64,000 nucleotides of DNA, from the NCBI GenBank assembly GCA_043778225.1, contig JAYWGM010000032.1, positions 32,001 through 96,000 on the forward strand. The letters run 5' to 3'. Under the pieces are notes generated by a model. The model searched no databases. It was given only the letters and a program-made list of their open reading frames with translations, and was not told the origin of the DNA. Every line of letters starts with the position of its first letter. The first letter of the stretch is position 1. Source of the DNA: Deinococcales bacterium (GTDB taxonomy: Bacteria; Deinococcota; Deinococci; Deinococcales; JAAFIG01). Of the stretch, positions 1 to 64,000 are shown piece by piece. The position numbers were made by a program, and so were the translations under genes.

Positions 1-2
1 TA

Positions 3-293
3 ACGGGGCGGGTGCTGCCAATTGGTGGACTCAAAGAAAAAGTCTTGGGCGCACGTCGGGCTGGAATTAAACACATTATTATGCCCAAAGCCAATACCGC
101 CGACCTCGATGATATTCCAACCCATTTACGGCGCAGCATGACCTTTCATCCGTGCGAGAATTTAGACCAAGTTCTCGAGGTGGCGCTTGAAGGTGGGTTG
201 GCGGCACTCGAGCAGAAAGCCATTACCGATGTGGTGAACACAAAGAATGTTAAGAAACCTCGGGGAAAACTCCAGCCTAGCGCCAGTGCGTAA
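3..293 (+). CDS. lon: Lon ATP-dependent protease, C-terminal fragment (5' part outside window)
   Basis: [31 protein letters not shown] is the Lon protease-domain signature containing the catalytic Lys; the frame is open to the window edge. Confidence 0.93.
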
Positions 294-302
294 AGTAAAA
301 TC

Positions 303-338
303 AAGCACCTCGAGATTAGATTCTCGAGGTGCTTTTTT
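303..338 (+). terminator. Intrinsic terminator between convergent lon and yihY-like genes
   Basis: AAGCACCTCGAGA-loop-TCTCGAGGTGCTT stem followed by a T run. Confidence 0.85.
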
Positions 339-356
339 GGCATGGTTTCCATACAG

Positions 357-1388
357 CTAACGCTTATCACCTTTCAGCCACGATTTCAGCAAAAAACCGC
401 CCAAACTACGGCTCGAGCGCCACGCGACCAACACTGCTAAAACAGTTATGATTCCTGCTGCCACCCGAACCACAGGCGTTGACTCGAGATTCTTAGTCAG
501 ATTCGTATCGGCTTGTTCGGCAGCCGAGGCTTGCAAACCCAAATGATTTTCTGGGGTTTTGACTTCTCGGCTCTGCGAATACACTTGGGTGAATTCAGCC
601 CCAAAAAGCACCAACTGCGCCGCATAATAAACCCACAATAACAACACCGCCAATGTTCCTGCCGTACCAAACACCGAAGCAAAAGCGCTCTGTCCTAAAT
701 ACAAACCAATTAAGCTCTTACCAATTGCAAACAGCACTGAAGTCAGCGCTCCACCAACCAAGGCATCGTGCCAACGCACTGGCGCATCTGGCAAAAAACG
801 GTAAATTAAAGCAAACAAAAACGCCACCAACGCAGCCGAGACAACCTCATAGAACACGCCCCACAACCAACCAGCCCCATCATCTAAACCAAGTTGCGCC
901 CCAAGACCACTTAGCACCGCACTGACCGACAACGAAACCAATAACAAGAAACTCATCACCAGCACTAAACCAAAGGAAACGGCTCGCGCCCGCAGCAACG
1001 CCCCAACATGAGCCGGTGGTACAGCATTCCAGACTTTATTGAGCGCTTGTTGCAACTGCCCAAATGCTCCACTTGCACCAAGCAACAACCCACCCGTACC
1101 CAAAATCACGCCAAGCACACCAGAGCCTTGATTCGCCGAAGCTCGCTCGAGCAAAGCACCAATCCATTCAGCCCCATCCTTACCAATTAACCCTGAAATT
1201 TCAGTCAGCAAACGCTCCCGAGCCGCATCAGCAGGAGCAAAAAACCCTGCTACTGCCAGAACCACCAGCAGCAACGGCGCTAACGCAAAAATAGTGTAAT
1301 ACGCCAAAGCTGCCGCTTGAGTCGGAATGTTATCAGCTTGCCATTTAGCAACTGTTTTACGCAGCAAATCAAAAGGAAATAAAGACAC
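357..1388 (-). CDS. YihY/virulence factor BrkB family membrane protein
   Basis: AAALAYYTIFALAPLL, LQQALNKVW and YYAAQLVLFGAEF motifs; multiple TM helices. Confidence 0.9.
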   Translation of the reverse strand: MSLFPFDLLRKTVAKWQADNIPTQAAALAYYTIFALAPLLLVVLAVAGFFAPADAARERLLTEISGLIGKDGAEWIGALLERASANQGSGVLGVILGTGGLLLGASGAFGQLQQALNKVWNAVPPAHVGALLRARAVSFGLVLVMSFLLLVSLSVSAVLSGLGAQLGLDDGAGWLWGVFYEVVSAALVAFLFALIYRFLPDAPVRWHDALVGGALTSVLFAIGKSLIGLYLGQSAFASVFGTAGTLAVLLLWVYYAAQLVLFGAEFTQVYSQSREVKTPENHLGLQASAAEQADTNLTKNLESTPVVRVAAGIITVLAVLVAWRSSRSLGGFLLKSWLKGDKR

Positions 1389-1501
1389 GGTAAACCTCGA
1401 GCCTCAGTCTAAGAAAATTTCTTTGAAGACAAGGACGCAAAAGGCTGAGGACAGGCTGAAAATAGTAGTAGCTCGAGTAGTTTCTCGAGCCACAACATCA
1501 G

Positions 1502-9761: not shown

Positions 9762-10711
9762 GTTTAACCGGTCAGCATACCCGAACTGGTTTTACCACTG
9801 CCAAACGCGGCTTAAATCATGATTCCTTTGCAATGCGTTTATGGCGCAAAGCTAAAAAATTTGGGATTTGGAATCCGTCAGAAATAGACTTTAGCCAAGA
9901 TACCAAAGACTGGCAGCAATTATCTGGTCTCGAGCAGCAAGTCTTGATTCATTTATCGGGCTTATTTCAGGCTGGCGAAGAAAGCGTGACGCTTGATTTA
10001 TTGCCTTTAATTCAAACCATTGCCAAAGAAGGGCGGCTTGAAGAAGAAATGTTCCTGACCAGTTTTTTATGGGAAGAAGCTAAACACATCGAAACCTTTG
10101 ACCGCTTTTGGACCAATGTGGTTGGGCATCACCCAGACCTCGAGCCATTTCATTCCGAGAGTTACCGCCAAATTATTTATCAGGCTTTGCCAAAAGCCCT
10201 ACACGCCCTCGAGACTGACCCCAGCCCGACTGCTCAAGCCCGTGCTAGTGTGACTTACAACATGATTGTTGAAGGGGTACTTGCCGAAACGGGTTATCAT
10301 GCTTACGGACAGATGCTCGAGCGCCACAAAATTTTGCCGGGAATGCGCCGTGCGATGCTGCTCTTTAAGCAAGATGAAAGCCGCCATATTGCGTATGGGG
10401 TGCATCTGCTGAGTCGTTTGGTTGCCGAACATGGCGACCCCGTGTGGGAAGTGATTGAAGCCGAAATGCAAACCCTGATTATGCCTGCAATTGGTGTGAT
10501 TAACGAAGTTTTTGATACTTACCAAGAAATGCCATTTGGTTTAGAAGCCGAAGATTTTATTGCTTATGCTTTTGGGCAGTTTCAACGCCGACTCGAGCGA
10601 ATCGAACGTGCCAGAGGTTTGAGTCTCGAGGAAGTCGTAGGCAAAGAAAGTCATGACCTCGAGCAAGCCGAAGTGACTTCTCCACTCGAGCAAGCCGAAG
10701 TAGCGGACTAA
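9758..10711 (+). CDS. R2-like ligand-binding oxidase (R2lox, Mn/Fe ferritin-like)
   Basis: GEESVTLDLLP, EEAKH, VTYNMIVEGVLAETGY, DESRH; ATGA overlap fixes the start at 9758. Confidence 0.88.
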   Translation: MSLTGQHTRTGFTTAKRGLNHDSFAMRLWRKAKKFGIWNPSEIDFSQDTKDWQQLSGLEQQVLIHLSGLFQAGEESVTLDLLPLIQTIAKEGRLEEEMFLTSFLWEEAKHIETFDRFWTNVVGHHPDLEPFHSESYRQIIYQALPKALHALETDPSPTAQARASVTYNMIVEGVLAETGYHAYGQMLERHKILPGMRRAMLLFKQDESRHIAYGVHLLSRLVAEHGDPVWEVIEAEMQTLIMPAIGVINEVFDTYQEMPFGLEAEDFIAYAFGQFQRRLERIERARGLSLEEVVGKESHDLEQAEVTSPLEQAEVAD

Positions 10712-19565: not shown

Positions 19566-19640
19566 GGGCGGTTAGCTCAGTGGTAGAGCATTCGCTTCAC
19601 ACGCGAAGGGTCGCTGGTTCAAATCCAGTATCGCCCACCA
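19566..19640 (+). tRNA. tRNA-Val (anticodon CAC); 3' half probably supplied by the integrated element
   Basis: GGGCGGT/ATCGCCC acceptor stem, TTCGC-TTCACAC-GCGAA anticodon arm, GGTTCAAATCC T loop, encoded CCA. Confidence 0.96.
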
Positions 19641-19645
19641 TACAG

Positions 19646-19677
19646 ACGCATTACTTGTAAAAATACGAGTAATGCGT
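19646..19677 (+). terminator. Hairpin downstream of tRNA-Val (element-supplied terminator)
   Basis: ACGCATTACTTGTA-AAAA-TACGAGTAATGCGT 14-bp stem with one G-U, followed by TT. Confidence 0.65.
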
Positions 19678-19723
19678 TTGCTTATTATCCAAAGGTGAGC
19701 CTACTCACAATTGGCGGTTTCGC

Positions 19724-21295: not shown

Positions 21296-21328
21296 TTTTG
21301 GCTTGAGTGACTGGCAAAGCTAAAAAGC

Positions 21329-22421: not shown

Positions 22422-22482
22422 CCCTAAGACGGTTACTGCTGCGTGGCTGTGGTTTGCTGCTCGAGCGAGTAAACTTATAAAT

Positions 22483-22647: not shown

Positions 22648-22741
22648 ATTCTCGATATTTTGCCCATAAATTGTATAAATATGCAAAAAACTACATACTC
22701 GAGCCTGTTGTAAGCTGTTTCATGATTTCTCGAGTTTTTGT

Positions 22742-47126: not shown

Positions 47127-50100
47127 ATGGATCAACGTTTTAAGCTCGAATCGGCATTTACCGCCAAAGGCGACCAGCCCAAAGCCATTGCCCAGATGGT
47201 GGATGGAATCGAGAGTGGCTTTCGGTTTCAGACATTATTGGGAGCAACTGGGACCGGAAAAAGTGTGGCGTGGGATGAACCTGTAACGATTCATTTGGGT
47301 GCAGACCAGTATTTTTTTGGTAAAATTGGAGAGCTAATAGACCACGCCCTTGGTGCAGACCAAAATACCGAGCATCTTGAAATGCCACCACCAGGAATGT
47401 GGCGTGTTTTAGCTTGGGACACAACCAATGGTCAGCATTCTTGGCAACCCATCACCGCCATTAGCCGACATCAAAGCCCCGAAGAACTGCACCAATTGGT
47501 CACAAGTTGTGGGCGTTCTGTGACCGTCACATCTGACCATAGTGTTTGGGTTTTACGGAGCGGCAAACTTCAATTGGTTTCTGGGGATTCAGTTGACAAG
47601 GGAGATGCCCTACCAATTCCAGACTTTGTGCCAGAACCACAGTTCCCCCTTCTCGAGCTTAATTTACTCGATATTCTGACCGACCAAAACTCGAGTGCTG
47701 CCGTGGATGTCAGTGCTGGTTTTAGACATCCGCTTTTTCGAGAAACCCTCGAGCCTTTGGTTAAAGCCAAAGCCTACGCGATAGAACGTGGCATTCGTGG
47801 ACGTTGGGTACGCCCAAGTTCAGCCGTGGCGCTGCTCGAGAAGGGTGTTTTGGAACTCGAGCAAATGCGTTTGCATGGTAAGCGTTATTCAATGCCAATG
47901 ACCTTATCAATCACAACCGAACTGATGTTTGTTTTTGGGCAGTATGTTGCTGAGGGTCATGGGGCAGCACGGTTTGCCTTGATTTCAACTCGAGAACTAG
48001 AAATCCAGAATGAACTCGAGTGTTGCTTACAGGCTGTTGGGATTCATTTTTTTCGCCGTCAAGATGGTGATTTTGTGATTGCCGAGAAAATCTGGTCGGA
48101 TTTACTGCATCGGTTTATGGGAAACACGGCTGGGGATAAGCGCTTACCGTATTTCTGGGCTGCTTTGGATAATTCTAAACTAAGTGTTTTATTGCGTGGC
48201 TATTTTGAAGGTGACGGTGGCTTAGACAAAGGCGCAGTCACGGCTGTGACACTTTCTAAAGAACTCAGCAGCGACCTTTGTATAGCTTTACTTAGGTTTG
48301 GTATTTGGGCGCGGCAACGCCAAATCCAGAAGAAAAAACCAAATGGTGAGTATGGTACTTATTGGAAAATAACAATTTCTGGTGCAGATAATCTAGGCTT
48401 ATACCAACAACAGATTGGATTTGCCTCTAAGCGCAAACAACTTGCTTTAACCAATGCCCTAAAAATAGGCAACACCAATGTTGATTTGGTTTTTGGTGTG
48501 GGTCAACGACTCAAATTAGAACGCCAAGCAAAACAATTATTTCAATCACAAATTGCCAAAAAAGCAGGTTGTGTTCGTACCATGATTTCGGCTATTGAAT
48601 GCGGTATTCGCAATCCCTCGAGACAGCTTTTTAACAAATTATGCGATGCTTTGGGGATTACAGATTTGGCATTTAGAGGCTTAGGGAAGCTGAAATGGTC
48701 ACCAGTAGAATCGGTCGAAGTGGTGACTGCCAAAAAACCATTTGTCTATGATTTTAGTGTCGAAGGGTTTGAAACGTTTTTATGCGGACGAGGTGGCTTA
48801 TTTGTCCATAATACTTTTTCGGTGGCGCAAACAATACAAGAACTTCAGCGCCCAGCTTTAATTATTGCACCCAATAAAATTTTAACTGCCCAATTGGCTG
48901 GCGAGTTCAAAGAATTCTTCCCGCATAATGCGGTCGAGTTCTTTGTTTCGTATTACGATTATTATCAACCAGAAGCCTATGTTCCGGGCAAAGATTTATT
49001 TATCGAAAAAGATTCTGCCGTCAACCAAGAAATCGAGCGCTTACGCCACAGCACCACCCGCAGTTTACTGACCCGCCGCGATGTGATTGTGGTTGCCAGT
49101 GTTTCCTGTATTTATGGCTTGGGCAACCCAGAAGCCTATAAAAAAATGAATTTGTACCTCGAGAAAGGTAAACCGATTGCACGAGACGCGATTCTCGAGC
49201 GGCTGGTCGAAATTCAGTACGAGCGCAATGATATAGAACTGATGCCCGGGCGTTTTCGTGCCAAAGGCGATACCCTAGAAATTTGGTGCAGCTACGACGA
49301 ACACCCAATGCGCCTACAACTCTGGGGTGATGACCTCGAGCAGATTCAAGTCGTAAATTTACTGACCGGCGAAATTTTGCAGGATTTAGACAGCACTGTC
49401 GTTTATCCAGCCAAGCATTATGTGACCGAACAGGGCAATATAGATGCAGGAATTGTGGGCATCGAAGCCGAACTGGCAAGCCAACTCGAGTATTTTAACA
49501 GTGTTGGTAAACTGCTCGAGGCGCAACGGATTAAGGAACGCACGCTTTATGACCTCGAGATGATGCGGGTGCTTGGTTACTGTTCGGGCATCGAGAATTA
49601 CTCGAGACACATTGACGGTCGCGCCCCGGGCGAAAAACCGTATACGCTGCTCGATTATTTCCCTGATGATTTTATTACTTTTCTGGACGAATCCCATATT
49701 TCGCACAGCCAAATCGGTGGGATGTACAAAGGCGATTATGCTCGCAAAAAAACCTTATCCGATTATGGGTTTAGGCTGCCAAGTTGTATGGATAACCGCC
49801 CATTAAAGCACGAAGAGTTCTACGATAAAGTTGGGCAAGTCGTCTATGTTTCGGCAACCCCCGGCGAGTACGAGCGCACCATCTCGAGCCAAATTATAGA
49901 CCAAGTGATTCGACCGACCGGCTTAGTTGACCCACAAATTAACTTGCGCCCGACCCTCGGGCAAGTCGAGGATTTATTGGGGCGAATCCGTATCCGAGCC
50001 GCCAAAGACGAGCGGGTTCTGGTCACAACCCTAACCAAACGAATGAGCGAAGACCTGACCGAGTATTTACTGTCGCACAATGTCAAAGCACGGTACTTGC

Positions 50101-51247: not shown

Positions 51248-53125
51248 TTAACGGCGTTCAAAGCGCTTGCCGCGAGCAAATCCGCCTTCACGTGGGGCTG
51301 GCGAGAACTCGCGGCGGCTGGTGTTGCCAGTTGGGCGGTCATCTCGAGCGCCGCTCTGGACAGCTTGAGCGCGGGTTTGGGCGTTGCCTTGTGGGGCAGC
51401 CGCTACGGGATTGCCACGGTCATCACGGTACTTGTAACCACCACTGCGCGGGCTGCTGCTTGTATTTGCATACCCACCACTTTGTGGACGGCTGTTGCCA
51501 CGGTCTTGGCTGTAGCTGTTGTTGCGGTTGTTAAAGCTGTTGCCACGTCCGCCACGGTCATCATAACGGCGTTCGCTGCTTGGGCGCTGTTGTGGTTCGC
51601 TTCGCAATTCGGTCGCCACTTCGATGGTGACATCCTCGAGTGGAGAAAGCGCCAGTAATTTGGTTGCCAAGTCGTTTGGCACATCTACATAAATACCATC
51701 GCCAAACATCTGCATTTTGCCCAAAATTTTACTCGAGATATTTGCGCCTTTGGCAATCATGGCGACCGCTCGAGGGATACTCAGGCGTTGACCGCGAAGT
51801 TCTAAGGTAGTTAAGCCTTCTTCTTCGGTCAGCAAGCTGACTTTTTTCGGAGCGTGGGTCACACCAGCAATCACCGCTAAGGCGCGAGCCAAGGCTTCTG
51901 AACCCATCTCCTCAAGCAAACGGTCGGCTTCGTATTGAAACGGCGAAAGCACTTCGCTTGGAATGCGGTTCAGTTCGTTGGCTGCATGACGGGCAGCCGC
52001 CGTGCGGACTTCGTTGGCACTTGGGGCTTCGAGCGGGATAAACTTGTTGCCAATCACGCGCTCTAAGTTTCGTAGGTCGCGTTCTTCGCGTTGGGTGAAC
52101 AAGACAATCGCTTTACCACTGCGACCAGCCCGACCAGTCCGACCCGAACGATGCACATAGCTTTCGGTGTCGTGTGGAAAATGGTGCTGCACCACCAGTT
52201 CGATGTCTGGAATGTCGATACCACGGGCTGCCACATCGGTTGCCACCAGCACTCGGCTACGACCAGCGCGGAAACCATCCAAAACCCGTTCGCGTTGGCT
52301 CTGGGCAAGATCGCCGTGAATCGCTTCGGCTTCAAAACCACGGTGGATTAACTCTAAAGCCAGTTCGTCGCAATCGCGCTTGGTTTTGGTAAAAATAATG
52401 GCGCGTTCGGGGGCTAAAACGGTCAGCATATCCGCCAAGACTCGGGTGCGGTGGGCGGGTTGGATTTTAATGCTGTGGTGCTGAACGTTGCTTTGCACCG
52501 AAGTGGCATTTTCGACCAAATCTATTTTGGCAGCGTTCTTTTGGTGCTTGGCAGCCAAGCGCTCAACCCAACGCGGCATCGTGGCACTAAAAAGCATGGT
52601 TTGGCGGTCGGTTGGTGCGGTCTCGAGAATTTTTTCGACTTGCTCTTGGAAGCCCATGCTTAGCATCTCGTCAGCTTCGTCCAGCACAACAAACTCGAGT
52701 TCGGAAAGGTTTAAGTTATTGCGATCCAAATGGTCTTGAATCCGACCGGGTGTACCGACAATCACATCCACACCAAAACGAATGGCGCGTTCTTGGGAGG
52801 CATAACTTGTTCCACCGTAAAATTCTTGAACCTCGAGAACGCCCAATTGCTCGAATTCTTTGGCGGTTTGTTTGGCAAGTTCGCGGGTTGGGGCAAGCAC
52901 CAAAGCCCGTGGTAAACGACCCTTGACGCGGCTTGGCGCAAGTTTGGTGACAATTGGCAGGGCAAAGGCTAAGGTTTTACCCGTTCCAGTCCGAGCGCGA
53001 CCTAAAATGTCGCGACCTTCGAGTGAAAACGGCAACGACTCAGCTTGAATCGGGGTAGGGATGGTGATTCCTCGGGCGGCAAGGCTCGAGACGACATCAG
53101 CAGACAACGGATAATCCGTAAACAT
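51248..53125 (-). CDS. DEAD-box RNA helicase with RNA-binding domain and R/G/S-rich tail
   Basis: PTPIQ, GTGKT, PTRELA, DEAD, SAT, HRSGRTGRAG; RBS AAGGA. Confidence 0.95.
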   Translation of the reverse strand: MFTDYPLSADVVSSLAARGITIPTPIQAESLPFSLEGRDILGRARTGTGKTLAFALPIVTKLAPSRVKGRLPRALVLAPTRELAKQTAKEFEQLGVLEVQEFYGGTSYASQERAIRFGVDVIVGTPGRIQDHLDRNNLNLSELEFVVLDEADEMLSMGFQEQVEKILETAPTDRQTMLFSATMPRWVERLAAKHQKNAAKIDLVENATSVQSNVQHHSIKIQPAHRTRVLADMLTVLAPERAIIFTKTKRDCDELALELIHRGFEAEAIHGDLAQSQRERVLDGFRAGRSRVLVATDVAARGIDIPDIELVVQHHFPHDTESYVHRSGRTGRAGRSGKAIVLFTQREERDLRNLERVIGNKFIPLEAPSANEVRTAAARHAANELNRIPSEVLSPFQYEADRLLEEMGSEALARALAVIAGVTHAPKKVSLLTEEEGLTTLELRGQRLSIPRAVAMIAKGANISSKILGKMQMFGDGIYVDVPNDLATKLLALSPLEDVTIEVATELRSEPQQRPSSERRYDDRGGRGNSFNNRNNSYSQDRGNSRPQSGGYANTSSSPRSGGYKYRDDRGNPVAAAPQGNAQTRAQAVQSGARDDRPTGNTSRREFSPAPREGGFARGKRFERR

Positions 53126-53385
53126 GGGGTATTCCTTTCGGGGTCGCAACTAGAGACGTTTCTCGAGAGGATTTCTCTCTAAACAACTCGCTCATTCGCG
53201 CTTAACCCAGAACCATCCCGTGCCTACGCGACCCTACGCACTTTCGTGCGTATCACGCCATCCTCTTGATGGCAACCGTAAAAGTGTATACAAAATGAAA
53301 TGAGAATTATGAATCTAACAATCGAGCAAGGAGGTCGAGGATAAATGCACCAAGTTGGCAGTCGCCTAAAGGCGGTAAAAAAGCA

Positions 53386-54933
53386 TCAAAAATAAAACGA
53401 CACTAAGACATTTGGAGATAAAATCCAGTTGGGGTCAAGACTCTTCTTAACATTCTGCATTTGCCTAATTCCAGCTTCACCGTATAACTGCAACAGCAAA
53501 GCCTGTTTTGTTTGATTTCTACCTACCCCATGCTCTGCCATTGGGCAGCCACCCAGTTGAATAATAATTTCTCCTAGTTTGAGGACAGCTTGTTTGGCAA
53601 TTTCGACATCCTCAAAATGGCGTGGCAGCATATTGGGATGCATATTTCCGTCTGATGCGTGTCCCCAAATTGCATAATCTATGCCCGTAGCATCAAAGAC
53701 TTGTCGGTAAGCCTGCATGGCTTTGCCAAGCTGGGCAAATGGCACAACCATATCCGCGCCAACTTTGGTTATTCTCGGGTCAACTTCGCGCTTGGCTCGA
53801 GCAAAACGTGCATTGATGCCTTCTGGAACAGCTTCGCGTAAGGCAATCATGGCTTTGGCAGCTTTGTGATCTTCGGGTGCGGCGTACAGGCACGTGTTTT
53901 CCAATTGGTGTTGCTCGAGCAAACTAAAAAAATCAGCTAAATCGGTTTCTTGGCTCGACTTGGGCAATTCAATTTGTACCAAAAGCAATGCTTGACAGGT
54001 ACTTGGCTCGAGATAAAAGCCAAGGCGTTGATCACTGCCATCTTGGTGTAGCAGTTCAACACAACGCCCATCCATGTACTCGATGGCACTGACATCAAGT
54101 CCACGTCTTCCAGCGCGTCGCTCAAAAGCCAGTAAGCGAAGGGCAGCCGTGAATTTAAGCGCAGCAAGTTCATTAGGGCAGGGAATAAGCGCCATGGCAA
54201 CTCGAGGACGTGGCGAAATGACTCGAAATTTAGCCGCCACGATGATACCCAATGTCCCTTCTGCCCCTATAAAAAGGTCAATTAAATCCATCTGAGGTGC
54301 AGAAAAGTAGCCTGCCGAAGATTTTTCAACGGCTGGCATGGTGTAACTCGGTACTGGAACGCGCCAGGTTCGCTCGAGATTACTAAATTCAAAGTACCCG
54401 TCAATATGGGCTTGGTACTGTCCACGCTGGATGTCTAAAACATCACCACTGGCTAAAACGACTGTCAGCCCAATGGTTTGATTGCGGATGCTGCCGTACT
54501 TAAAGGTGGTTGCCCCAGCCGCATTGGTCGAAAGCGCTCCACCCACTTGTGCGCCGTCGTAAGTCGGGATTCCAGCTAACCAATACCCGTGGGTATCAAG
54601 AAAGTCTTGTAACACGCGCAAGCTGACCCCCGCCCCAACACAAACCGTATCGTTTTCGAGGGTCATTTCAGAAAAATGCTGCATACTCAGGATGACTTCG
54701 CCAAACGGCGTTGCTCCGCCCGTCACCGACGATTGTGCGCCAATCGGTAAAACACTGGAATGCGTCAAGAGAACTTGAGCCACCCCAGATTCGGAGTGGG
54801 GTCGTACCACCCCAAGGGCAAATCCATTGGGCAGATAACTTGCGTCGCTTAAATATGCACTGGTATCGGAAAGAACCGTCGGGTTTTCGAGATTGCCAAA
54901 TGGCAGACGCAAAAGAACATGGTGGGTTGCCAT
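53386..54933 (-). CDS. FAD-binding oxidoreductase (GlcD/D-lactate dehydrogenase family)
   Basis: GGALSTNAAG, FIGAEGTLGII, GHASDGNMH, AEHGVG, LDPNWILSP. Confidence 0.9.
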   Translation of the reverse strand: MATHHVLLRLPFGNLENPTVLSDTSAYLSDASYLPNGFALGVVRPHSESGVAQVLLTHSSVLPIGAQSSVTGGATPFGEVILSMQHFSEMTLENDTVCVGAGVSLRVLQDFLDTHGYWLAGIPTYDGAQVGGALSTNAAGATTFKYGSIRNQTIGLTVVLASGDVLDIQRGQYQAHIDGYFEFSNLERTWRVPVPSYTMPAVEKSSAGYFSAPQMDLIDLFIGAEGTLGIIVAAKFRVISPRPRVAMALIPCPNELAALKFTAALRLLAFERRAGRRGLDVSAIEYMDGRCVELLHQDGSDQRLGFYLEPSTCQALLLVQIELPKSSQETDLADFFSLLEQHQLENTCLYAAPEDHKAAKAMIALREAVPEGINARFARAKREVDPRITKVGADMVVPFAQLGKAMQAYRQVFDATGIDYAIWGHASDGNMHPNMLPRHFEDVEIAKQAVLKLGEIIIQLGGCPMAEHGVGRNQTKQALLLQLYGEAGIRQMQNVKKSLDPNWILSPNVLVSFYF

Positions 54934-54934
54934 T

Positions 54935-55891
54935 TTAATAGCCTAAATCAGCGTGTTTCATCGTGTTCTCGAGCGGCTGCCCAGCTAAATAACGCTCTAG
55001 GTTGGCACTAAATTCGGCAACCACCCGATGGCGAATCATTGGGCTGCGGTACGAACAATGCGGGCTAATCAACAGGTTGGGGGCATCCCATAATGGACTT
55101 TCTGGCGGCAGTGGTTCGGTTTCAAAAGCATCCAAACAAGCTCCAGCAATTGTGCCTTGATGCAGTGCCTCGAGTAAATCGCTGTCTATAATTAAGCCAC
55201 CTCGAGCCAAATTTACCAAATAAGCTGTTGGTTTCATGGCTTTTAACCTCCCACGATTGATCATGCCTCTGGTTTCAGGGGTCAGTGGGCAAGCCAGCAC
55301 CACATAATCGGCTTGGGCTAAAACATGGTCAAGCTCTTTGGGGGGATAAATTGCCTCAAATTGCGCTGTGGCTCGAGGGTTGCGCTGAACCCCAATTAGG
55401 CGCATTCCAAAACCGATGGCGATACTCGCTAGTCGCTCGCCGATTGCCCCAGCCCCAATCACCGCTAAGGTGCTGTTGTAAAGTTCGCTGTGCATGGGCG
55501 GCGACCACTGGTGCTGAACTTGGGCTTGTTGCAACAAGGCTAAATTCTTGGCATGACCTAGGATTGTGGCAAAAGCAAATTCTGCCATCGGAATGTTCAT
55601 CACGCCTGCTGAGCGACTGACTTTAATTTGTCGCTCCAAAATTTCGGGAACCATGACCCAATCAAAACCAGCTGTGCCAGTGTGAACCCAGTCGAGTTGA
55701 GTAGCGGCTTTAATTAGCTGACTGAGTTGCGATTTTTCCATGCCGCCGTACAGCAGTGCTTTGGCTCGAGAAACGGCATTTGGCAAATCAGCACCACGTT
55801 CTAAACGAATAAATTCAATGTCTGGATAGCGTGCAAAGGTGTCTTGGGTATAGATCGGTTCATACAAATGACTAACAAGAATTGTGGTCAT
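54935..55891 (-). CDS. D-2-hydroxyacid dehydrogenase
   Basis: GAGAIG, PLTPET, NLARG, EPLP, SPH. Confidence 0.92.
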   Translation of the reverse strand: MTTILVSHLYEPIYTQDTFARYPDIEFIRLERGADLPNAVSRAKALLYGGMEKSQLSQLIKAATQLDWVHTGTAGFDWVMVPEILERQIKVSRSAGVMNIPMAEFAFATILGHAKNLALLQQAQVQHQWSPPMHSELYNSTLAVIGAGAIGERLASIAIGFGMRLIGVQRNPRATAQFEAIYPPKELDHVLAQADYVVLACPLTPETRGMINRGRLKAMKPTAYLVNLARGGLIIDSDLLEALHQGTIAGACLDAFETEPLPPESPLWDAPNLLISPHCSYRSPMIRHRVVAEFSANLERYLAGQPLENTMKHADLGY

Positions 55892-56826
55892 GGACTCTTC
55901 TCTCTTCGGTCTGGTTTCGAGTTTTTGCTATCGCCACTCGAGCGTAGACGTGGGTCAAGGGCATCGCGCAGCACATCGCCAAGTGCATTAAACGACATCA
56001 CTGCACAAAGAATCATCAGCCCAGGGTAAATTGCTAATAACGGAGCGCTAAAGACATAATTTTGACTGGCGGTGAGCATATTGCCCCAAGAAGGGTCGGG
56101 TGGGCGGATACCAAGCCCAAGAAAACTAAGGCTGGCTTCATAGAGCATCACATTGCCAATACCAATGGTGGTCGCCACAATCAAGGATGGCATGACTTGT
56201 GGCAAAAGGTGGCGAAACATGACTCGAGTATCGTTTGCCCCAAGCCCAATCGCAGCTGTAATAAAGTCCAGACTCTTGAGGCGCATCACCTCGCCACGAA
56301 TTAACCGAGCAGGTCCCATCCAACGGGTCAAGCCAAGGGCTAAGACCAAAATAATCGGGCTTGCACCCCAGATGGCAACCACCACTAACAGTAAAAAAAA
56401 GACAGGCACACTCAGCATTCCATCGGTAAAGCGCATAATCAGGCGGTCGGTCAAGCCACCAAAAAAGCCAGAGATTAAACCTAAACTCGAGCCAAGCAGC
56501 ACCGTCAATAGCGCCGCACTTAAACCCACCATCAAAGAAACCCGCCCACCAGCAATCAAGCGTGCCAAGACATCACGTCCATTTTCGTCTGTGCCAAGTA
56601 GATTGATGCCATTTGGCGCGGCAAGTGGCTTACTCAAATCAATTCGTGTGGCTGAAGGTATTGGTAAAATTGGCTCGAGTACAATCAATGCCAAAACACA
56701 CAATAAAAATCCTGCTCCAAATAGGGCTAAGCGATTAGCGCATAAGCGTGTCCAAATGATGCTGCCAAGCGAACGCCCAGAAGCTCGAGTGACTGCCACG
56801 ACCGTTGTTTGCTTGGTCTGTTCCAT
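55888..56826 (-). CDS. Peptide ABC transporter permease (DppC/OppC type)
   Basis: LGTDENGRD, EASLSFLGLG, PSWGNML, LRDALDPR. Confidence 0.93.
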   Translation of the reverse strand: MEQTKQTTVVAVTRASGRSLGSIIWTRLCANRLALFGAGFLLCVLALIVLEPILPIPSATRIDLSKPLAAPNGINLLGTDENGRDVLARLIAGGRVSLMVGLSAALLTVLLGSSLGLISGFFGGLTDRLIMRFTDGMLSVPVFFLLLVVVAIWGASPIILVLALGLTRWMGPARLIRGEVMRLKSLDFITAAIGLGANDTRVMFRHLLPQVMPSLIVATTIGIGNVMLYEASLSFLGLGIRPPDPSWGNMLTASQNYVFSAPLLAIYPGLMILCAVMSFNALGDVLRDALDPRLRSSGDSKNSKPDRREKSP

Positions 56827-57770
56827 CAGTAGCGTATCCTAGGGTCAATCAAAACATACAGCGCGTCAATCACGAGATTACTAAAAATCACAGTGACCGA
56901 AATAAACATCGTGATTCCCAGAATTAGGGGTGCATCACGACCAATGGCAGCCTCAACTGCCATGCTGCCAATTCCGGGCCAAGCAAACAGCGATTCGATT
57001 ACGGCTGCACCTCCTACCAAACGCGGTAGAAATAGACCAAAAACCGTCAGCACTGGCACAAGGGCATTGCGAAAAACGTGTTTACCATGAACCACACTTT
57101 CTTTTAAGCCCTTGCCACGGGCGGTACGAACATAATCTTGGTTCATGCTCTCGAGCCAACTCGAGCGGGTATAGCGCATTAGTTCAGCCGTGGTTGAAGC
57201 TGATAACACAAGGGCTGGCAAAACCAGATACGATAAGCGGTCAAGCAGCGAAAAATCCGTGCCAACCGTCTGCATACCAGCCCCTGGTAAAATCCGCAAC
57301 TGCACGGCAAAAATAATAATCAAAACAATCCCAAGCCAAAACCCCGGGGTGGCTAAGCCAACAAAACTGACAAAACTTAAAGTTTGGTCAAGCCAACTGT
57401 TGGGCTGACGGGCGGCAATCACACCGCCCGTAAAACCAATCAAAAGGGTCAGTAATAAGGCTGCCCCACCAAGCAGTAAGGTAGCCGGTAAACGCTCGAG
57501 AATCATTTCGAGAACCGGACGACGAAAATTAAATGAACTGCCTAAATCAGCCCGTAATAGCCGTCCCATCCATTGGGTGTATTGCACAAAAACAGGTTGG
57601 TCAAGACCATAGCCGCGTTCAACGGTGGCACGTACCTCCGGGTCAAGGTTGGGGTCTGCCAGAATACTCAGGCTTCCGGGGGCTGACTGAATTAAAAAGA
57701 AAGTCGCAGTCAGCACCACAAAAACCACCGCTAAACTGGCAAGTCCTTGACGCAGCAGGTAATTAAACAT
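56826..57770 (-). CDS. Peptide ABC transporter permease (DppB/OppB type)
   Basis: GLDQP, DYVRTARGKG, IESLFAWPGIG, IDPRIRY. Confidence 0.93.
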   Translation of the reverse strand: MFNYLLRQGLASLAVVFVVLTATFFLIQSAPGSLSILADPNLDPEVRATVERGYGLDQPVFVQYTQWMGRLLRADLGSSFNFRRPVLEMILERLPATLLLGGAALLLTLLIGFTGGVIAARQPNSWLDQTLSFVSFVGLATPGFWLGIVLIIIFAVQLRILPGAGMQTVGTDFSLLDRLSYLVLPALVLSASTTAELMRYTRSSWLESMNQDYVRTARGKGLKESVVHGKHVFRNALVPVLTVFGLFLPRLVGGAAVIESLFAWPGIGSMAVEAAIGRDAPLILGITMFISVTVIFSNLVIDALYVLIDPRIRY

Positions 57771-57772
57771 TG

Positions 57773-59383
57773 CTAACGCGCCATCCAGAGCTTAAAGGCA
57801 TAGGGCATGGCATCTTTAATGTTGTAGGGTGGCACATTGCGTAAACGCGCACTCGAGGCGGTCATACGTTCACGAAATAGCAGAATCATATTGGGTGGGT
57901 CGTCGTACAATGCTTGTTGGATTTGTGCCAGCACCGCAATTTGTTGGTTGCGGTCGGCGGTTGCAACCAAGCGCCCCAATAAGTTATCCACCCGTGGATT
58001 GTTGTAGGCTTGTCCGTTGTTTTGTCCAACGCTTAAAAACAGCCTTTGAATCCAGTCAATGTTAGGAATCGGAAAAGAAGCAAGGCGGGTTTGAAATGTG
58101 CCTTTGGTGGTTTCCTCGAGCCAGCGACCGCCGCGTTCTGCGAGGTCGTAAGTCACTTTCATGCCAATATCGCTAAAGTATTGTTGCAAAATCAGTCCAA
58201 ATTGCTCGCGCTGCACATCACCTTTGTCTACTAAAATCTTAAATTCAAAGATTTTGCCGTCTTTCTCGAGGATACCGCTACTGTTGGGTCGCCAGCCAGC
58301 TTCGGCAAGTAAGGCTTTGGCACGGGTTGGGTCGTATTCACGGAATTTAACTTCGGGACGTGGAACCCAAGTTAAACCTTTAGGAATATACAAATCGTCT
58401 ATATAACCAAGGTTTGGTGAAACAGTCTGAGCAGCTTTACGGCGGTCTACCGCGTGCATCATGGCTTGGCGTACCTTCAGGTCTTGAAAAATCGGTAAGC
58501 GCAAATTCCAAGCAAAAATCTGATAGCCAAGGCTGTCAAAGGTGGTGACTTTAATGTTTTGGTTGGCTCGGACGGCGTTCAGTTGTGGAGCTTCGATGTC
58601 TACCCAGTCTAATTGTCCAGTCAAGAGTTGGGTCACCCGTGTGTTACCGTCTGGCACAATCTTAAAGGTAATACCATCAAGGTTAGGACGACCTAAGAAA
58701 AACTGTGGGTTTGCCTCGAGTTCAAAAAATTGCCCCGGTACAGCCCGTTTCATCTTAAATGCGCCATTGCCAATTGGGGTGCGGGTGTTAAAAGCGGTTG
58801 CATCTTTGAGGCGCTTAAAGCCACTCAAAACGTGTTTTGGCAAAATTTCGCTGCCACCCAGCGCCAAGCGGTCATCAAAAAAAGCGTCGGGTGAGTTCAA
58901 AAAGACCCGTACCGAATAGCCACCAATCACTCGAACTTCTTTGACTTTGCGAAAATCTGGTAGGTTGGTTGCCCCTTCTTCTGGGTCGCGCAAGCGGTCA
59001 AAGGTAAATTTGACATCTTCGGCAGTTACGGCTTTACCATCGTGCCAACGGGCATTGCGCCGTAAATTAAAAGTCCATTCGGTCAGTGCGGCATTGCTCG
59101 AGTAACTTTGAGCCAAGTATGGCTCGAGTTTTAAGGTGTATGGATTGACGGCAGTCAGTGGACTAAACATCGTCCAATTGACAATCGTAGCGGCTAATTC
59201 GGCAGGCAAAATCGGGTTAAACGAACCCGGCTGAGTCGCCAATGGAATCTCGAGGATTCCTCCTTTTTGGATTTCGCTCTGCGCTTGGGTACCAGTTTGT
59301 GTCAGCACTAGGGCTGTGGCACAAAGCACAGTACCAAGTGCGGCGAAGCGTAAGAACTTCAATCCATCGTAACGAATTCCCAT
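57773..59383 (-). CDS. Peptide ABC transporter substrate-binding protein (family 5)
   Basis: WHDGKAVTAEDVKFT, PIGNGAF, AKALLAEAGW; RBS GGAGG before MGIRY. Confidence 0.92.
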   Translation of the reverse strand: MGIRYDGLKFLRFAALGTVLCATALVLTQTGTQAQSEIQKGGILEIPLATQPGSFNPILPAELAATIVNWTMFSPLTAVNPYTLKLEPYLAQSYSSNAALTEWTFNLRRNARWHDGKAVTAEDVKFTFDRLRDPEEGATNLPDFRKVKEVRVIGGYSVRVFLNSPDAFFDDRLALGGSEILPKHVLSGFKRLKDATAFNTRTPIGNGAFKMKRAVPGQFFELEANPQFFLGRPNLDGITFKIVPDGNTRVTQLLTGQLDWVDIEAPQLNAVRANQNIKVTTFDSLGYQIFAWNLRLPIFQDLKVRQAMMHAVDRRKAAQTVSPNLGYIDDLYIPKGLTWVPRPEVKFREYDPTRAKALLAEAGWRPNSSGILEKDGKIFEFKILVDKGDVQREQFGLILQQYFSDIGMKVTYDLAERGGRWLEETTKGTFQTRLASFPIPNIDWIQRLFLSVGQNNGQAYNNPRVDNLLGRLVATADRNQQIAVLAQIQQALYDDPPNMILLFRERMTASSARLRNVPPYNIKDAMPYAFKLWMAR

Positions 59384-59435
59384 ATGACCTCCAAAACGCA
59401 TGAATCGTTTACTTGAGTGATGATGAACCCAACAA

Positions 59436-59615
59436 AATATACCAGTACGCTAGTATATTATTCTCTTCTTTGGCAGTCTGTCAAGAATCATCTTACAATT
59501 TGCTGACATTGATAAAAATCTGTTTGTCACGACAAAATACTCTATTTTTGAAATCATCTTGACAATTTGAGCCTTGAGTTCTACAATTCTTAATTGTACC
59601 AGTACAATAGTACAA
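59436..59615. promoter_or_regulatory. Divergent promoters with two matching GntR-type operators
   Basis: Plus strand TTGACA(59559)-17-TACAAT(59582); minus strand TTGACA(59484)-18-TAATAT; operators AATATACCAGTACGCTAGTATATT (59436) and TTGTACCAGTACAATAGTACAA (59594). Confidence 0.8.
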
Positions 59616-59632
59616 TTTTTTAGGAGGAAGTC

Positions 59633-59842
59633 ATGGCTATCGTTCGTGTAGAAATTGCCAAGCGTCCACAACATCAGCGCGATGCAATCATTGAAGGTAT
59701 TACTCGAGTCTTGGTTGAAAACGGCGCACACACCGAAGGGGTTCAAGTGTTACTCTATGAACTCGAGATGGATGTTTGGGGTAAAGGCGGTCTAACATTT
59801 GCCGAACGTCAAAGACGACGTGAAGCTGGGGAGCAAATCTGA
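59633..59842 (+). CDS. 4-oxalocrotonate tautomerase family protein (Ala in place of Pro-1)
   Basis: IVRVE..R..QRDAIIEGITRVL..VQVLLYE..WGKGG; RBS AGGAGG. Confidence 0.8.
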   Translation: MAIVRVEIAKRPQHQRDAIIEGITRVLVENGAHTEGVQVLLYELEMDVWGKGGLTFAERQRRREAGEQI

Positions 59843-59883
59843 CTCGGGTCATTAAACGAAGTCCAGCCGAACCTCTGCCGTTA

Positions 59884-60858
59884 TTGGTTGCCGAGGAAGG
59901 TCATGAGCCGATTTATTTGCAAATCGCTCACCAGATTCGGCATCACATCATCAGCCGTCGGCTCGATGAAGGGGCGCGTTTGCCTTCAGTACGTGAAGTC
60001 GCGCAGCAGCTTGGAGTTAATGTTAATACTGTTGTACAGGCATACCGCACCTTACAACAAGATGGCTTAATTGACAGCACCGCCGGGCGCGGAACAGTGG
60101 TCAATGCCTTATCGCAAAGTGACAACAGCTATAACGAACGCCAAACGCTGCTGCTCGAGAGCCTAAGTTATGCTGTCATGCGCGGACGGGCGCTTGGTTT
60201 TGGGGCAATCGAATTAAAACAAGCCTTTCAAACTGCCCTGAATCTTTTACCGACACCTATACCCGCCGTGCTAATTGCCCCAACCGAAGACATTGGACGC
60301 AAGTATGCTGCCCAAATTCACAATGCACTTGGCATAAGAAGCCAAACGCTACATCCTTTTACGCTCGAGCAACTCCAGTCTGGTTTGCCCGCGCTGCTCA
60401 AGCTACTCGAGGTTGCTTACCATATTGTGACCTTCACCTTGCTTGTTCCAGCCACACGCCGCGCCCTTGAAGCTCAAGGTCTTCATGCCAATGTGATTGG
60501 TATTACTGCTGAAGCCAGCCATAAAACTTTAGCGGGCTTAAAAAACTTACCGCCGCAGGGTCGTTATGGACTGGTCACCGAAGAGCGCAATGTCAGCACT
60601 TTTTTATCAATTTTGCAACAGCACAGTCAAATAGATCACCACCAAGTCAAGGTTTTTCTACCCGAGTCGCTCGAGCAACTTAAAAAGGCTTTGCCAAACC
60701 TTGATACAGTCTTGTATTCGTTGGGTGTTAAAAAACTGCTTGACAACGCAGCCATACCCCAGACCATGCGTTTTGAACTTGAGTTTGAAATCAGTCAAGA
60801 CGCTGTCTTTCGCTTGCATTCAATTTTCAACCCAACGGCTTTGGCATTAGCCGACTAA
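59884..60858 (+). CDS. GntR family regulator with large C-terminal domain
   Basis: PIYLQI..LPSVREVAQQLGVNVNTVVQAYRTL..GRGT. Confidence 0.9.
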   Translation: MVAEEGHEPIYLQIAHQIRHHIISRRLDEGARLPSVREVAQQLGVNVNTVVQAYRTLQQDGLIDSTAGRGTVVNALSQSDNSYNERQTLLLESLSYAVMRGRALGFGAIELKQAFQTALNLLPTPIPAVLIAPTEDIGRKYAAQIHNALGIRSQTLHPFTLEQLQSGLPALLKLLEVAYHIVTFTLLVPATRRALEAQGLHANVIGITAEASHKTLAGLKNLPPQGRYGLVTEERNVSTFLSILQQHSQIDHHQVKVFLPESLEQLKKALPNLDTVLYSLGVKKLLDNAAIPQTMRFELEFEISQDAVFRLHSIFNPTALALAD

Positions 60859-60885
60859 ATAATTCAGACCATCTTGGAGGTTTTT

Positions 60886-61719
60886 GTGAGTAGTCCCGCT
60901 CGTTATGTCTATTTGGGTCGGCTTAAAGCCTACCTCAATAAATTTGATCAATCGCTCGAGGTTTTTAGCCAAGGTTTAGAGCAATTCCCGAGTAGTCCGC
61001 ATTTATACCGCCACAGGGCGCACCGTTTTATTACCTTGCGTGATTTTGACAATGCCATTTTGGATTTTGAAAAAGCCATTGAACTGACCCGCAATATGCC
61101 GGATGAAATCGAATATTATCAACCACAAGTCGAGCGCGATATTGCCCATTTGATCCTTGACCAAGCTGACCAAATTCAGACCGAACCAACCCTAATTACC
61201 CCAGAAACACTCAAGCGCTTAAAAGATACCTATAAAAGCACCCTGAAATCGAGTATCTACTACCATTACGGCTTAGCTTACTATCTCAAAAGCGATTTTG
61301 AAAAAGCCGCCCAGATTTACCGCGAAACCCTGACCCATTGTGTGGATGACGACATGAGAGCCGCGACCACCGATTGGTTGTATATGAGCTTGCGCCGATT
61401 GGGGCAAATAGCTGAAGCCGCGATTGTCCTTAAAACCATCCATCCCGAAATGCACATTGTTGAGTCGTCGTATTTTAAGCGCTTATTGATGTATCAAGGT
61501 CTGGTCAAACCCGAAGAATTACTACCCGAAAATGCCGATTCTTCCAGAGAAATCGCCACCCAAGGCTATGGTTTAGGCAATTGGTACTTTTATAACAACG
61601 ACCTCGAGCAAGCTAAAAAGACCTTTCAGCGCGTACTTAACCTCAAACAGACCAGTGCCTTTGGTCATATTGCCGCAGAACTCGACATCGAGCGCCATCT
61701 CCAAGGGGTATCTATATGA
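60886..61719 (+). CDS. TPR-repeat protein
   Basis: YRHRAHRFITLRDFDNAILDFEKA, YYHYGLAYYL, YGLGNWY; RBS GGAGG before GTG. Confidence 0.8.
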   Translation: MSSPARYVYLGRLKAYLNKFDQSLEVFSQGLEQFPSSPHLYRHRAHRFITLRDFDNAILDFEKAIELTRNMPDEIEYYQPQVERDIAHLILDQADQIQTEPTLITPETLKRLKDTYKSTLKSSIYYHYGLAYYLKSDFEKAAQIYRETLTHCVDDDMRAATTDWLYMSLRRLGQIAEAAIVLKTIHPEMHIVESSYFKRLLMYQGLVKPEELLPENADSSREIATQGYGLGNWYFYNNDLEQAKKTFQRVLNLKQTSAFGHIAAELDIERHLQGVSI

Positions 61720-62759
61720 TTGCCAACCGTGAAAACCGAGGCTTCCACGCCATTCTCGAGAACCCACCGCCGTACCCGTTTGTCGATGCCTGTATTCAAG
61801 CCTGGCCCGATGCCGATTATGCCAATGCTCACCGACATGGCGCAACAGCGTATTGTGTGACGGCTTTTCATCCACAAAAAACCCTTGAGGAATCGCTCGA
61901 GGAAATCATGTACTGGCACTTGATTGCTCGCCGTAACCCCAATCTGCGGGTGGCAACCACGGCTGCCGACATCGTTGAAGCCCACCAACAAGGGCAAGCC
62001 TGTTTTGTGCTGGCATCTCAAGACGGCGAATTTATCTGGGGCAAACTACACCGCCTTGAAGCCTTTGCCCGCCTTGGAATGCGAATTATGATTCCAGCCT
62101 ATAATCGCAATAACCTGATTTGTGGAGGCTGTCTGGACTTGGGCGATGTTGGACTAAGCCAGTTTGGGCATTTGGTGATCGAAGAATGTAATCGCCTTGG
62201 AGTGCTGCTTGACTGCAGCCATGTCAGCCGCCGAGCCAGTTTTGAAATCATCGAAAAAAGCACTCAGCCTGTTATTTTTAGTCATTCAAACCCAAGTCAA
62301 TTGGCACAAAATCCACGCAACATAGACAACCAGCAAATTCTGGCTTGTGTCGCTAAAGGTGGTATTATTGGGGCGGTCAATTGGGGACCGCTCGCCCAAA
62401 AAACCGAACAGAATGTTCGCCCAACCTTATCGGATTTTCTTGACCATATCGATTATCTGTGTAACTTGGTTGGCAATGCTGACCATGTTGGCATTGGTAG
62501 CGACATGAGCCTTGGTTCTTATCCAGACCATACCTACGATGTCTGGGGACACCCCAATTATCCAAATACCATGGCAAAGTACAATCAAGCTGTGCCAATC
62601 GCTTTTCGTTCACCACTGCGCTACACCGAAGGATTCGATAGTTTTTCGCAAATTAACGATGTGATTCTTGGACTCGAGGCACGCAAATACACCTCGGAGC
62701 AAATCGCAGGTATTCTTGGCGGCAATTTAATTCGGGTATTTTCTACAGTCTGGAAATAA
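61716..62759 (+). CDS. Membrane dipeptidase (peptidase M19) family protein
   Basis: GLSQFG, LDCSH, FSHSN, RNIDN, HIDY, HVGIGSD, ILGGN. Confidence 0.88.
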   Translation: MIANRENRGFHAILENPPPYPFVDACIQAWPDADYANAHRHGATAYCVTAFHPQKTLEESLEEIMYWHLIARRNPNLRVATTAADIVEAHQQGQACFVLASQDGEFIWGKLHRLEAFARLGMRIMIPAYNRNNLICGGCLDLGDVGLSQFGHLVIEECNRLGVLLDCSHVSRRASFEIIEKSTQPVIFSHSNPSQLAQNPRNIDNQQILACVAKGGIIGAVNWGPLAQKTEQNVRPTLSDFLDHIDYLCNLVGNADHVGIGSDMSLGSYPDHTYDVWGHPNYPNTMAKYNQAVPIAFRSPLRYTEGFDSFSQINDVILGLEARKYTSEQIAGILGGNLIRVFSTVWK

Positions 62760-62771
62760 TACCAATTTTGC

Positions 62772-62802
62772 GTTTAAGTGAGGCATTTCGCCTCACTTAA
62801 AC
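62772..62802. terminator. 13-bp perfect hairpin after the dipeptidase gene
   Basis: GTTTAAGTGAGGC-ATTTC-GCCTCACTTAAAC. Confidence 0.7.
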
Positions 62803-62875
62803 AGCACGCTCTAAAATGAATCGAAAAGTTCTTAGCTACTCGAGCCACACCACTTTTGCGGTAAACTCGAGTACG

Positions 62876-63925
62876 ATGATAGAACTACAGGTCAATTTAC
62901 AACCCGCCTACCCGATTTTAATTGCTCGAGATGCTTTTTTATCGGTGCGAATACCAGAACGCCGCGTGGCGCTGCTGTGCGACGAACGTATCGCACCGTT
63001 GTATGCTCCAGCCTTGGTCTCGAGTCTCGAGCGAGGTGGCTCGGAGGTGCATTTATTGCTTGTGCCAAGTGGCGAAGCCGCCAAAACGCTCGAAGTTCAT
63101 GCAAAACTATTGTCGGAACTTGCCCAACTTGGGCTAACTCGAGACAGTGCTGTGGTGGCGCTGGGTGGCGGCGCAACCTCGGACTTGGCGGGTTATGTGG
63201 CTGCCAGTTATTTGCGCGGTATTGCTTTTTATGTTTGTCCGACCACACTGCTGGCGATGGTAGATGCCAGTGTTGGTGGTAAGACTGGGGTCAATCTGCC
63301 CCAAGGTAAGAATTTAGTCGGCGCGTTTCATCAGCCGCGTGCTGTTTTTATGAACACCAGTAGCCTCGAGTCACTACCAAGTGCCACTTTCCGCGAAGGT
63401 GCAGCCGAACTTTTTAAGCATGGTTTGATTGCCGACTCTAAACTCTGCCAACTGGTTCTCGAGGCTGGATTTAATGCCCAGCACCCGAGGCTCGAGACGA
63501 CACTAGCCTCTGGAGTACAAGTCAAAATAGATATTGTGCAGCAAGACCCGTTTGAGCAAAATATACGGGCTTTCTTGAATTTTGGACACACGCTGGCTCA
63601 TGCACTCGAGGCAATCACCCACCATGCTATTCCACATGGAGAGGCAGTCGGTTATGGAATGCACTATGCGGCGCTGCTTGGTAAAACCCTTGGTTATGCT
63701 GATGTGACCCACTTAACAAACGCCTTTCTCGAGTACCAAAAGCCAACCGCCTTACCAAGTCTGGAATGGATTAAAATTCGTGATTTTATGGCACGCGATA
63801 AAAAAGCCGACCAAACAGGAGTACGTTTTGTGCTGCTCGAGGATGTTGCCAAGCCTAAGCTCGAGCGTGTGCCAGAAGCGGCGCTCGAGATGGCTTGGGC
63901 AGCATTCAAAACCCCGAAGGTTTAA
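62876..63925 (+). CDS. aroB: 3-dehydroquinate synthase
   Basis: PTTLLAMVDASVGGKTGVN, KNLVGAFHQP, LNFGHTLAHALE, HGEAV, RDKK. Confidence 0.96.
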   Translation: MIELQVNLQPAYPILIARDAFLSVRIPERRVALLCDERIAPLYAPALVSSLERGGSEVHLLLVPSGEAAKTLEVHAKLLSELAQLGLTRDSAVVALGGGATSDLAGYVAASYLRGIAFYVCPTTLLAMVDASVGGKTGVNLPQGKNLVGAFHQPRAVFMNTSSLESLPSATFREGAAELFKHGLIADSKLCQLVLEAGFNAQHPRLETTLASGVQVKIDIVQQDPFEQNIRAFLNFGHTLAHALEAITHHAIPHGEAVGYGMHYAALLGKTLGYADVTHLTNAFLEYQKPTALPSLEWIKIRDFMARDKKADQTGVRFVLLEDVAKPKLERVPEAALEMAWAAFKTPKV

Positions 63926-63935
63926 TTTCGGGGTT
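63908..63935. terminator. Hairpin overlapping the aroB stop
   Basis: AAACCCCGAA-GGTTTAAT-TTCGGGGTTT. Confidence 0.65.
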
Positions 63936-64000
63936 TGTTGAGCCTTGTTACTTGAGGGTTTTAGCGACGAGTTGCAACTTCTTTGCCTTCTTTAGTCGCC

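Follow-up and report, generated by a model that had tools for sequence, protein, structure and literature searches.

Here we report on the abundance, distribution and possible origin of the palindrome CTCGAG in a stretch of 64,000 nucleotides (48.3% GC; hereafter the window) from contig JAYWGM010000032.1 of an uncultured Deinococcales bacterium, in its source genome (G000; 4.03 Mb, 89% complete) and in a comparison sample of 364 genomes of the phylum Deinococcota. The excess of this word is a real feature and it points to DNA repair rather than to a common methylase: in the phylum as a whole, genomes that have lost the mismatch-repair proteins MutS1 and MutL show almost none of it. This association with mismatch repair is the new element of the study, and we offer it as a lead.

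An earlier note on the window, made from its letters, had proposed that CTCGAG is hyper-abundant throughout, and the counts bear this out. The window holds 395 copies (6.2/kb, one per 162 bp) against 8.63 ± 3.22 (maximum 17) in 100 dinucleotide shuffles, each 4-kb bin contains between 16 and 36 of them, and the ten copies that had been counted by eye between positions 11701 and 12700 are exact. Comparison with Markov nulls, which the note had suggested, yielded observed-to-expected ratios of 48, 15 and 3.6 for orders 1, 2 and 3, respectively, and CTCGAG is the highest-ranking hexamer of the window at each of these orders. The whole genome carries 24,877 copies, compared with 24 of the reversed control GAGCTC, and the neighbour word CTCGAC, which is matched in GC content, is 31-fold rarer than CTCGAG.

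The excess belongs to the exact word, which stands at 46 times chance in the window, whereas its 18 one-mismatch neighbours together amount to 231 copies against 195.5 expected (1.2 times chance) and its deamination product, CTTGAG, is found at just 1.4 times chance. The general depletion of such neighbours that the note had proposed looking for was not seen in the window, where only CACGAG (5 against 22 expected) and CGCGAG (15 against 26) are low. Several other palindromes are avoided there: GGCC occurs twice, GATC 22 times (0.12 of expectation) and TTTAAA once, and AAGCTT, GGCGCC, TGCGCA, GCGCGC, GCATGC, TTCGAA and GTCGAC do not occur at all. The source genome encodes many DNA methylases, several of them beside nuclease-like genes and others orphan (L001-L020, L036-L038), and their sequences resemble enzymes that we presume to be specific for the avoided palindromes.

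Mismatch-repair genes and the distribution of CTCGAG

Genomes were compared through R, the ratio of CTCGAG to CTCGAC per strand, with CTCGAC as the GC-matched control; these ratios, like the frame counts given below, were counted by hand from position tables. All 19 genomes of the window's Deinococcales family hold 4.3-6.8 CTCGAG/kb, and R ranged between 9 and 54 in ten of them, being 30.8 in the source genome. In family f2 the genus g12 spans a roughly 70-fold spread, with R values of 75 (G122) and 86 (G123) against 1.2 in their congener G124, and R was 5.6 in G002 of the same family. Values of 3.4-19 were obtained for 18 genomes of genera g18, g19 and g21, and values of 0.014-0.52, meaning depletion of CTCGAG, for 15 Deinococcus-like genomes. 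Six Thermus-like genomes (G201-G234 sample) showed R values of 41-318 with 5-70 CTCGAC per strand and 1,755-2,803 CTCGAG (approximately 0.8-1.6/kb); in these genomes CTCGAG is spared where other TCGA contexts have been purged, and the high R mostly reflects the missing CTCGAC. We take f2/g8 to be Deinococcus, f4/g21 to be Meiothermus-like, f4/g22 Thermus-like and f5 Trueperaceae. Among viral contigs (L145-L224) we observed at least 133 stretches with three clustered CTCGAG sites, some contigs appearing repeatedly. No report of CTCGAG hyper-abundance in Deinococcota was found in a literature search that had most subscription journals and supplements outside its reach.

MutL is present in 18 of the 19 genomes of the window's family and the nineteenth has MutS1, which is also encoded by the source genome and by all four other enriched genomes checked. 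The clearest contrast comes from family f5 (127 genomes, G324 being left out), which divides into 35 MutL-positive and 92 MutL-negative genomes. R was at least 2 in 32 of the MutL-positive genomes (at least 10 in 14 of them; the exceptions had 1.16, 1.32 and 1.69) compared with a single MutL-negative genome, G245, the other 91 lying between 0.70 and 1.80. The GAGCTC control agrees, the ratio to this word being at least 2.9 in 34/35 MutL-positive and 4/92 MutL-negative genomes. MutS1 was absent from 44 of the 45 MutL-negative f5 genomes tested, that is, it was lost jointly with MutL, and NucS gave a strong match in all five such genomes tested for it, which suggests that they are not obviously repair-less mutators. 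Family f3 presented the same picture, with an R of 6.3 in the MutL-positive G145 and of 1.07-1.77 in the 12 genomes of genus g16, all of which are devoid of MutL and, in the five checked, also of MutS1.

Two candidates were examined and rejected. NucS, with strong matches in 12/19 window-family genomes, in depleted genomes as well and in none of the tested f4 and f5 genomes that are enriched, does not account for the word. The endonuclease motif of MutL reads DAHA in the low G124 and DQHA in five enriched genomes; nonetheless all 14 f2 rows are without the Q, those of G122 and G002, both enriched, among them, and DQHA is kept by five weakly enriched or non-enriched genomes, a result that also counts against the explanation by biased repair favoured below. 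These 14 f2 MutL fragments (L278-L291) show DAHA, DVHA, DGHA or DSHA instead of DQHA, and three of them also lack the second His.

Sites in genes, hairpins and mobile parts of the window

The distribution of CTCGAG over reading frames was determined for 139 sites in 20 genes (approximately 21.8 kb), located by means of the first 200 listed positions (of 395) and the coordinates of the open reading frames. Leu-Glu accounted for 87 sites (63%), x-Arg-x for 24 and x-Ser-Ser/Arg for 28, where shuffles give about one per frame, so that each of the two frames other than Leu-Glu is more than 20-fold above chance. Because all three frames lie far above the shuffle expectation the excess goes beyond the Leu-Glu frame (the earlier note had named confinement to it as fatal to its proposal), and since intergenic sites are common too, with copies in intergenic hairpin stems, its claim that the word occurs in every frame and in intergenic DNA holds. 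The features of the window on which the following paragraphs draw are these:

303..338: terminator-like hairpin, with a 12-bp stem (303-314/323-334) on two CTCGAG (309, 323), then a T run
1471..1490: short intergenic hairpin, with a 7-bp stem and two CTCGAG copies (1472, 1484)
10658..10701, plus strand: 17-bp in-frame duplication, with CTCGAG opening each copy (10658, 10685)
13923..15506, minus strand: recN, used as test gene, with 16 CTCGAG sites (10/5/1 by frame)
19596..28342, plus strand: tRNA-Val-integrated element, with 46-nt att repeats at 19596 and 28297 (85% alike) and an integrase at 27087-28217
40134..40899: PIN-domain module, with a PIN gene (40191-40589, minus strand) between two direct repeats of about 50 bp (40134-40182, 40850-40899)
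47418..48813 (approximate limits), plus strand: uvrB intein with a LAGLIDADG domain and 8 CTCGAG in 1.4 kb (5.7/kb)
53001..63000: transporter region of lower density, with 41 CTCGAG over 10 kb (4.1/kb), which remains some 30 times the chance level

Of the 13 Leu-Glu pairs in recN, 10 are spelled CTC GAG, one of 12 synonymous spellings, and Glu elsewhere in the gene is mostly GAA. Relatives of this gene with 75-85% identity belong to Deinococcales or Deinococcota bacteria. In an alignment of recN from seven genomes (85% column identity) three Leu-Glu sites stay CTC GAG in 7/7, and some CTCGAG were gained together with a change of residue, as at column 618, where the window has Ala-Ser-Ser and three relatives have Thr-Gly-His. 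The proposal that the force behind CTCGAG rewrites even conserved proteins is thus supported in this gene, where codon choice is overridden and residues are changed.

The tRNA-Val element contains 59 CTCGAG in 8.7 kb (6.8/kb). Having been ameliorated to full density, it agrees with the previous suggestion that it is long adapted to its lineage. Its cargo comprises a tyrosine integrase and a PIN-family gene (21329-21754), and its 523-residue open reading frame (19724-21295) had no match in Pfam or NCBIfam. Directly upstream of the tRNA-Val, at 19549-19566, there are two CTCGAG, the second overlapping the first base of the tRNA, which was the sole match of an Rfam scan of the window. Elsewhere in the source genome, foreign-looking islands are near-empty, with no CTCGAG in the first 2,990 bp of L020 and one in 2.1 kb of L013, and imported restriction-modification loci (L001 and L009-L012, for example) are at full density, with 21-24 copies per 3.1-3.9 kb. 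The empty islands and the full-density older imports, taken together, suggest that DNA acquires CTCGAG sites with time once it is resident.

The placement of CTCGAG in hairpin stems (303-338 and 1468-1490) and at the edges of duplications (10658, 40134 and 40850), both pointed out in the earlier note, was confirmed in the sequence, the stems measuring 12 and 7 bp. The repeats flanking the PIN module are terminator-like and their similarity begins and ends at CTCGAG sites; the module is possibly an insertion resolved at such sites. Other observations in the window include the splitting of uvrB (47127-50711) by the intein, which bears helix-turn-helix as well as LAGLIDADG domains, four S41 (C-terminal processing) peptidase paralogs in tandem at 40906-46563, and a promoter-like intergenic repeat of 95 nt (3183-3277 and 5776-5870; 80% alike) that holds one CTCGAG.

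Biased repair, selection and methylation as possible explanations

The explanation that we favour, with a confidence that goes about halfway, is a biased repair dependent on MutS/MutL, with a putative further sequence-specific component, that keeps creating and restoring CTCGAG. We read the results in this way because the excess is seen regardless of frame, comes without a halo of near-matches and nearly depends on MutS1/MutL, and because imports ameliorate and residues change. A process acting at the DNA level would write CTCGAG into any resident DNA and keep it there, with MutS1/MutL mismatch repair being required. It would start from a mismatch in a site or near-site, arising through replication error or in a recombination heteroduplex, and repair would then be biased towards the strand reading CTCGAG, so that losses of sites would be corrected and chance gains fixed, in a manner resembling very short patch (VSP) repair but extending over all six positions. 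The sequence may be recognised by another protein or through a mark on the DNA, or MutS/MutL may themselves prefer it, and the Deinococcus-like genomes and G124 would have lost the sequence-specific component while keeping MutL. Gain through mismatch repair has been proposed for HIP1, the highly iterated palindrome of cyanobacteria (Elhai 2015, PMC4390886). If such a repair drive is true, a repair pathway imposes amino-acid changes on the whole proteome.

A wider version of biased repair, which we put forward tentatively and regard as doubtful, is that Deinococcota have an ancestral, methylation-independent and sequence-directed MutS/MutL repair, in which CTCGAG would be the signal for strand choice or repair bias, spreading by molecular drive to as much as one site per 120-160 bp, rewriting proteins, and being switched off where mutS/mutL or a partner is lost. 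If true, it would offer a new route of strand choice for MutH-less bacteria and a general explanation of highly iterated palindromes.

Several results weigh against biased repair. MutL is not sufficient for the excess: 15/15 Deinococcus-like genomes tested are MutL-positive and yet depleted (R 0.014-0.52), and MutL is also present without enrichment in G124 (R 1.2), in eight g17 genomes (1.06-2.07) and in the three f5 genomes below 2. Conversely, four genomes appear enriched without either gene, namely G245 (R 28.8; 87% complete, with a MutL-positive congener), G174 (5.6; 69% complete), G144 (3.05; 91% complete) and G196 (5.4 against GAGCTC; 92% complete). No nuclease, methylase or other accessory gene was conserved beside mutL in the four neighbourhoods read, and the lack of a general depletion of one-mismatch neighbours departs from what a simple conversion ratchet might predict. 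In addition, the R threshold of 2 was picked after the ratios had been seen, the association between MutL and CTCGAG is uncorrected for kinship among related genomes, and the split within f5 could be a single loss that coincided with the loss of another gene.

Natural selection, which we consider an unlikely explanation, might instead keep CTCGAG as a recombination or DNA-uptake signal, or as a site bound by some abundant protein of the chromosome, in which case the link with MutS/MutL would be indirect and reflect shared history or a change in lifestyle. It is favoured by the conservation of synonymous-position sites in 7/7 recN genes and by the bounding of the PIN module between its repeats by CTCGAG and the start of the 17-bp duplication at a site, although with a site every 162 bp repeat-edge sites picked after the fact are weak as evidence. 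Tolerant binding sites usually show a halo of near-matches, and none surrounds CTCGAG. Moreover, selection does not predict the split of 32/35 against 1/92 genomes by MutL, and sites are about as dense in the integrated element and the intein as in the chromosome. On the side of selection, HIP1 is reported to improve transformation (10.1101/2024.09.10.611283) and to correlate with type IV secretion (PMC13756078).

A methyl-directed ratchet, as has been proposed for HIP1, would require a CTCGAG or TCGA methyltransferase that marks the site, perhaps from another enzyme family or replaced by turnover among lineages, and appears improbable to us. The earlier note had suggested a ratchet driven by methylation or repair, of which the link to repair has some support from the MutL/MutS1 comparison and the methylation half was not supported, and it had proposed searching for a CTCGAG methyltransferase and a Vsr-like gene. 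No methyltransferase common to the enriched genomes emerged among families PF00145, PF01555, PF02086 and PF02384 (five enriched genomes each) or with the XhoI-type query (72 genomes). In G143, a single contig with 23,515 CTCGAG, there are one C5 methylase, no PF01555 (N4/N6-beta) enzyme and two D12 enzymes, the remainder being mainly type I-like; its C5 methylase gene and upstream flank have no CTCGAG over 2 kb, and the sole C5 methylase of G128 is a different one. The orphan methylase L036, considered as a family-wide enzyme, was rejected because close homologs occur in just 3/19 genomes of the family. Vsr was found in 0/19 of these genomes and in 4/80 overall (the positive control matched in 3/14), and VSP repair by Vsr with a cognate C5 methyltransferase was discarded on this ground; the level of CTTGAG likewise speaks against a methylated site.

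XhoI-type restriction-modification was rejected as the cause too. Its nuclease family (PF04555) occurs in 0/19 genomes of the window's family and in 7/364 of the phylum, and the methylase adjoining the XhoI-family nuclease of G356 has no homologs (at least 50%) in 19/19 window-family genomes, 3/3 g12 genomes and G002. Homologs at this level are found in 9/72 genomes, all of them moderately enriched, which would favour methylation. The nuclease gene of G356 is split in two frames and its methylase is intact (L046/L048); the enrichment of this genome is among the lowest of the MutL-positive f5 genomes. A methylated site is also compatible with dependence on MutL, and 5-methylcytosine methylation of CTCGAG exists in Halorubrum (PMC8112702); a hot-spring host-phage group has methylated CTCGAG and TCGA in common (10.64898/2026.06.24.734251).

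Finally, it is hardly tenable that CTCGAG owes its abundance to a preference for certain codons or dipeptides (Leu-Glu as CTC GAG) or to the avoidance of other palindromes, since the prevalence of Leu-Glu among coding sites (87/139) and the strong avoidance of other palindromes in the window are outweighed by the excess in the other two frames and in intergenic DNA, by the rarity of the mirror pair GAG CTC (just 24 in the genome) and of CTCGAC, and by the use of GAA for Glu elsewhere in recN.

Comparison with known systems

XhoI and PaeR7I are type II restriction-modification systems that recognise the same hexamer, CTCGAG, and restriction normally selects against its site. Such systems differ from the case described here in being absent from the window's family and rare in the phylum. 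The DNA uptake sequences of Neisseria and Pasteurellaceae are present in thousands of dispersed copies, lie in terminator stems and have reshaped codons, and they have non-palindromic cores of 9-12 nt with over-represented near-matches. CTCGAG shares with them the thousands of dispersed copies, the use in terminator stems and the reshaped codons, but it is palindromic, 6 nt long and free of a halo (neighbours at 1.2 times chance) and falls outside that class. VSP repair, in which Dcm and Vsr act with MutS/MutL in E. coli, is a MutL-assisted and sequence-biased repair that enriches a palindromic site. Unlike it, the window's family has neither Vsr nor a common C5 methylase, the bias seems to span six positions and not a single T:G mismatch, with an effect that is far greater.

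The closest likeness is to HIP1 (GCGATCGC) and the alternate HIPs of cyanobacteria, with which the earlier note had compared CTCGAG. All of them are short palindromes spread genome-wide, in all frames and in intergenic DNA, and patchy across their phylum, and gains of HIP1 have been proposed to come from mismatch repair (PMC4390886), as is suggested here for CTCGAG. CTCGAG lies far above expectation genome-wide, is in excess in all frames and in non-coding DNA, and is kept among relatives beyond protein constraint, the last of these seen in one gene (recN) only. The comparison therefore stands, and CTCGAG counts as HIP1-like while being distinct from HIP1 and found outside cyanobacteria. It occurs in another phylum and is another word, a hexamer of 67% GC, whereas the core of HIP1 is CGATCG/GATC and GATC is depleted here. 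Its density, 6,170/Mb, is at least twice as high as the 300-2,700/Mb of the HIP1 octamer and the 1,000-2,000/Mb of alternate HIPs (PMC4390886), a paper that in the passages covered mentions neither CTCGAG nor Deinococc or Meiothermus. No common orphan methyltransferase was found in the families searched, and a contrast is available in genomes that have lost mutS/mutL naturally. HIP1 has been without a settled cause for three decades (PMC13756078), and in CTCGAG there is a denser counterpart in another phylum that comes with natural controls, namely the lineages that lost mutS/mutL and the spread within genus g12. Thermus- and Meiothermus-like relatives, which are apparently cultured and show a milder enrichment, could allow repair drive and selection to be separated experimentally.

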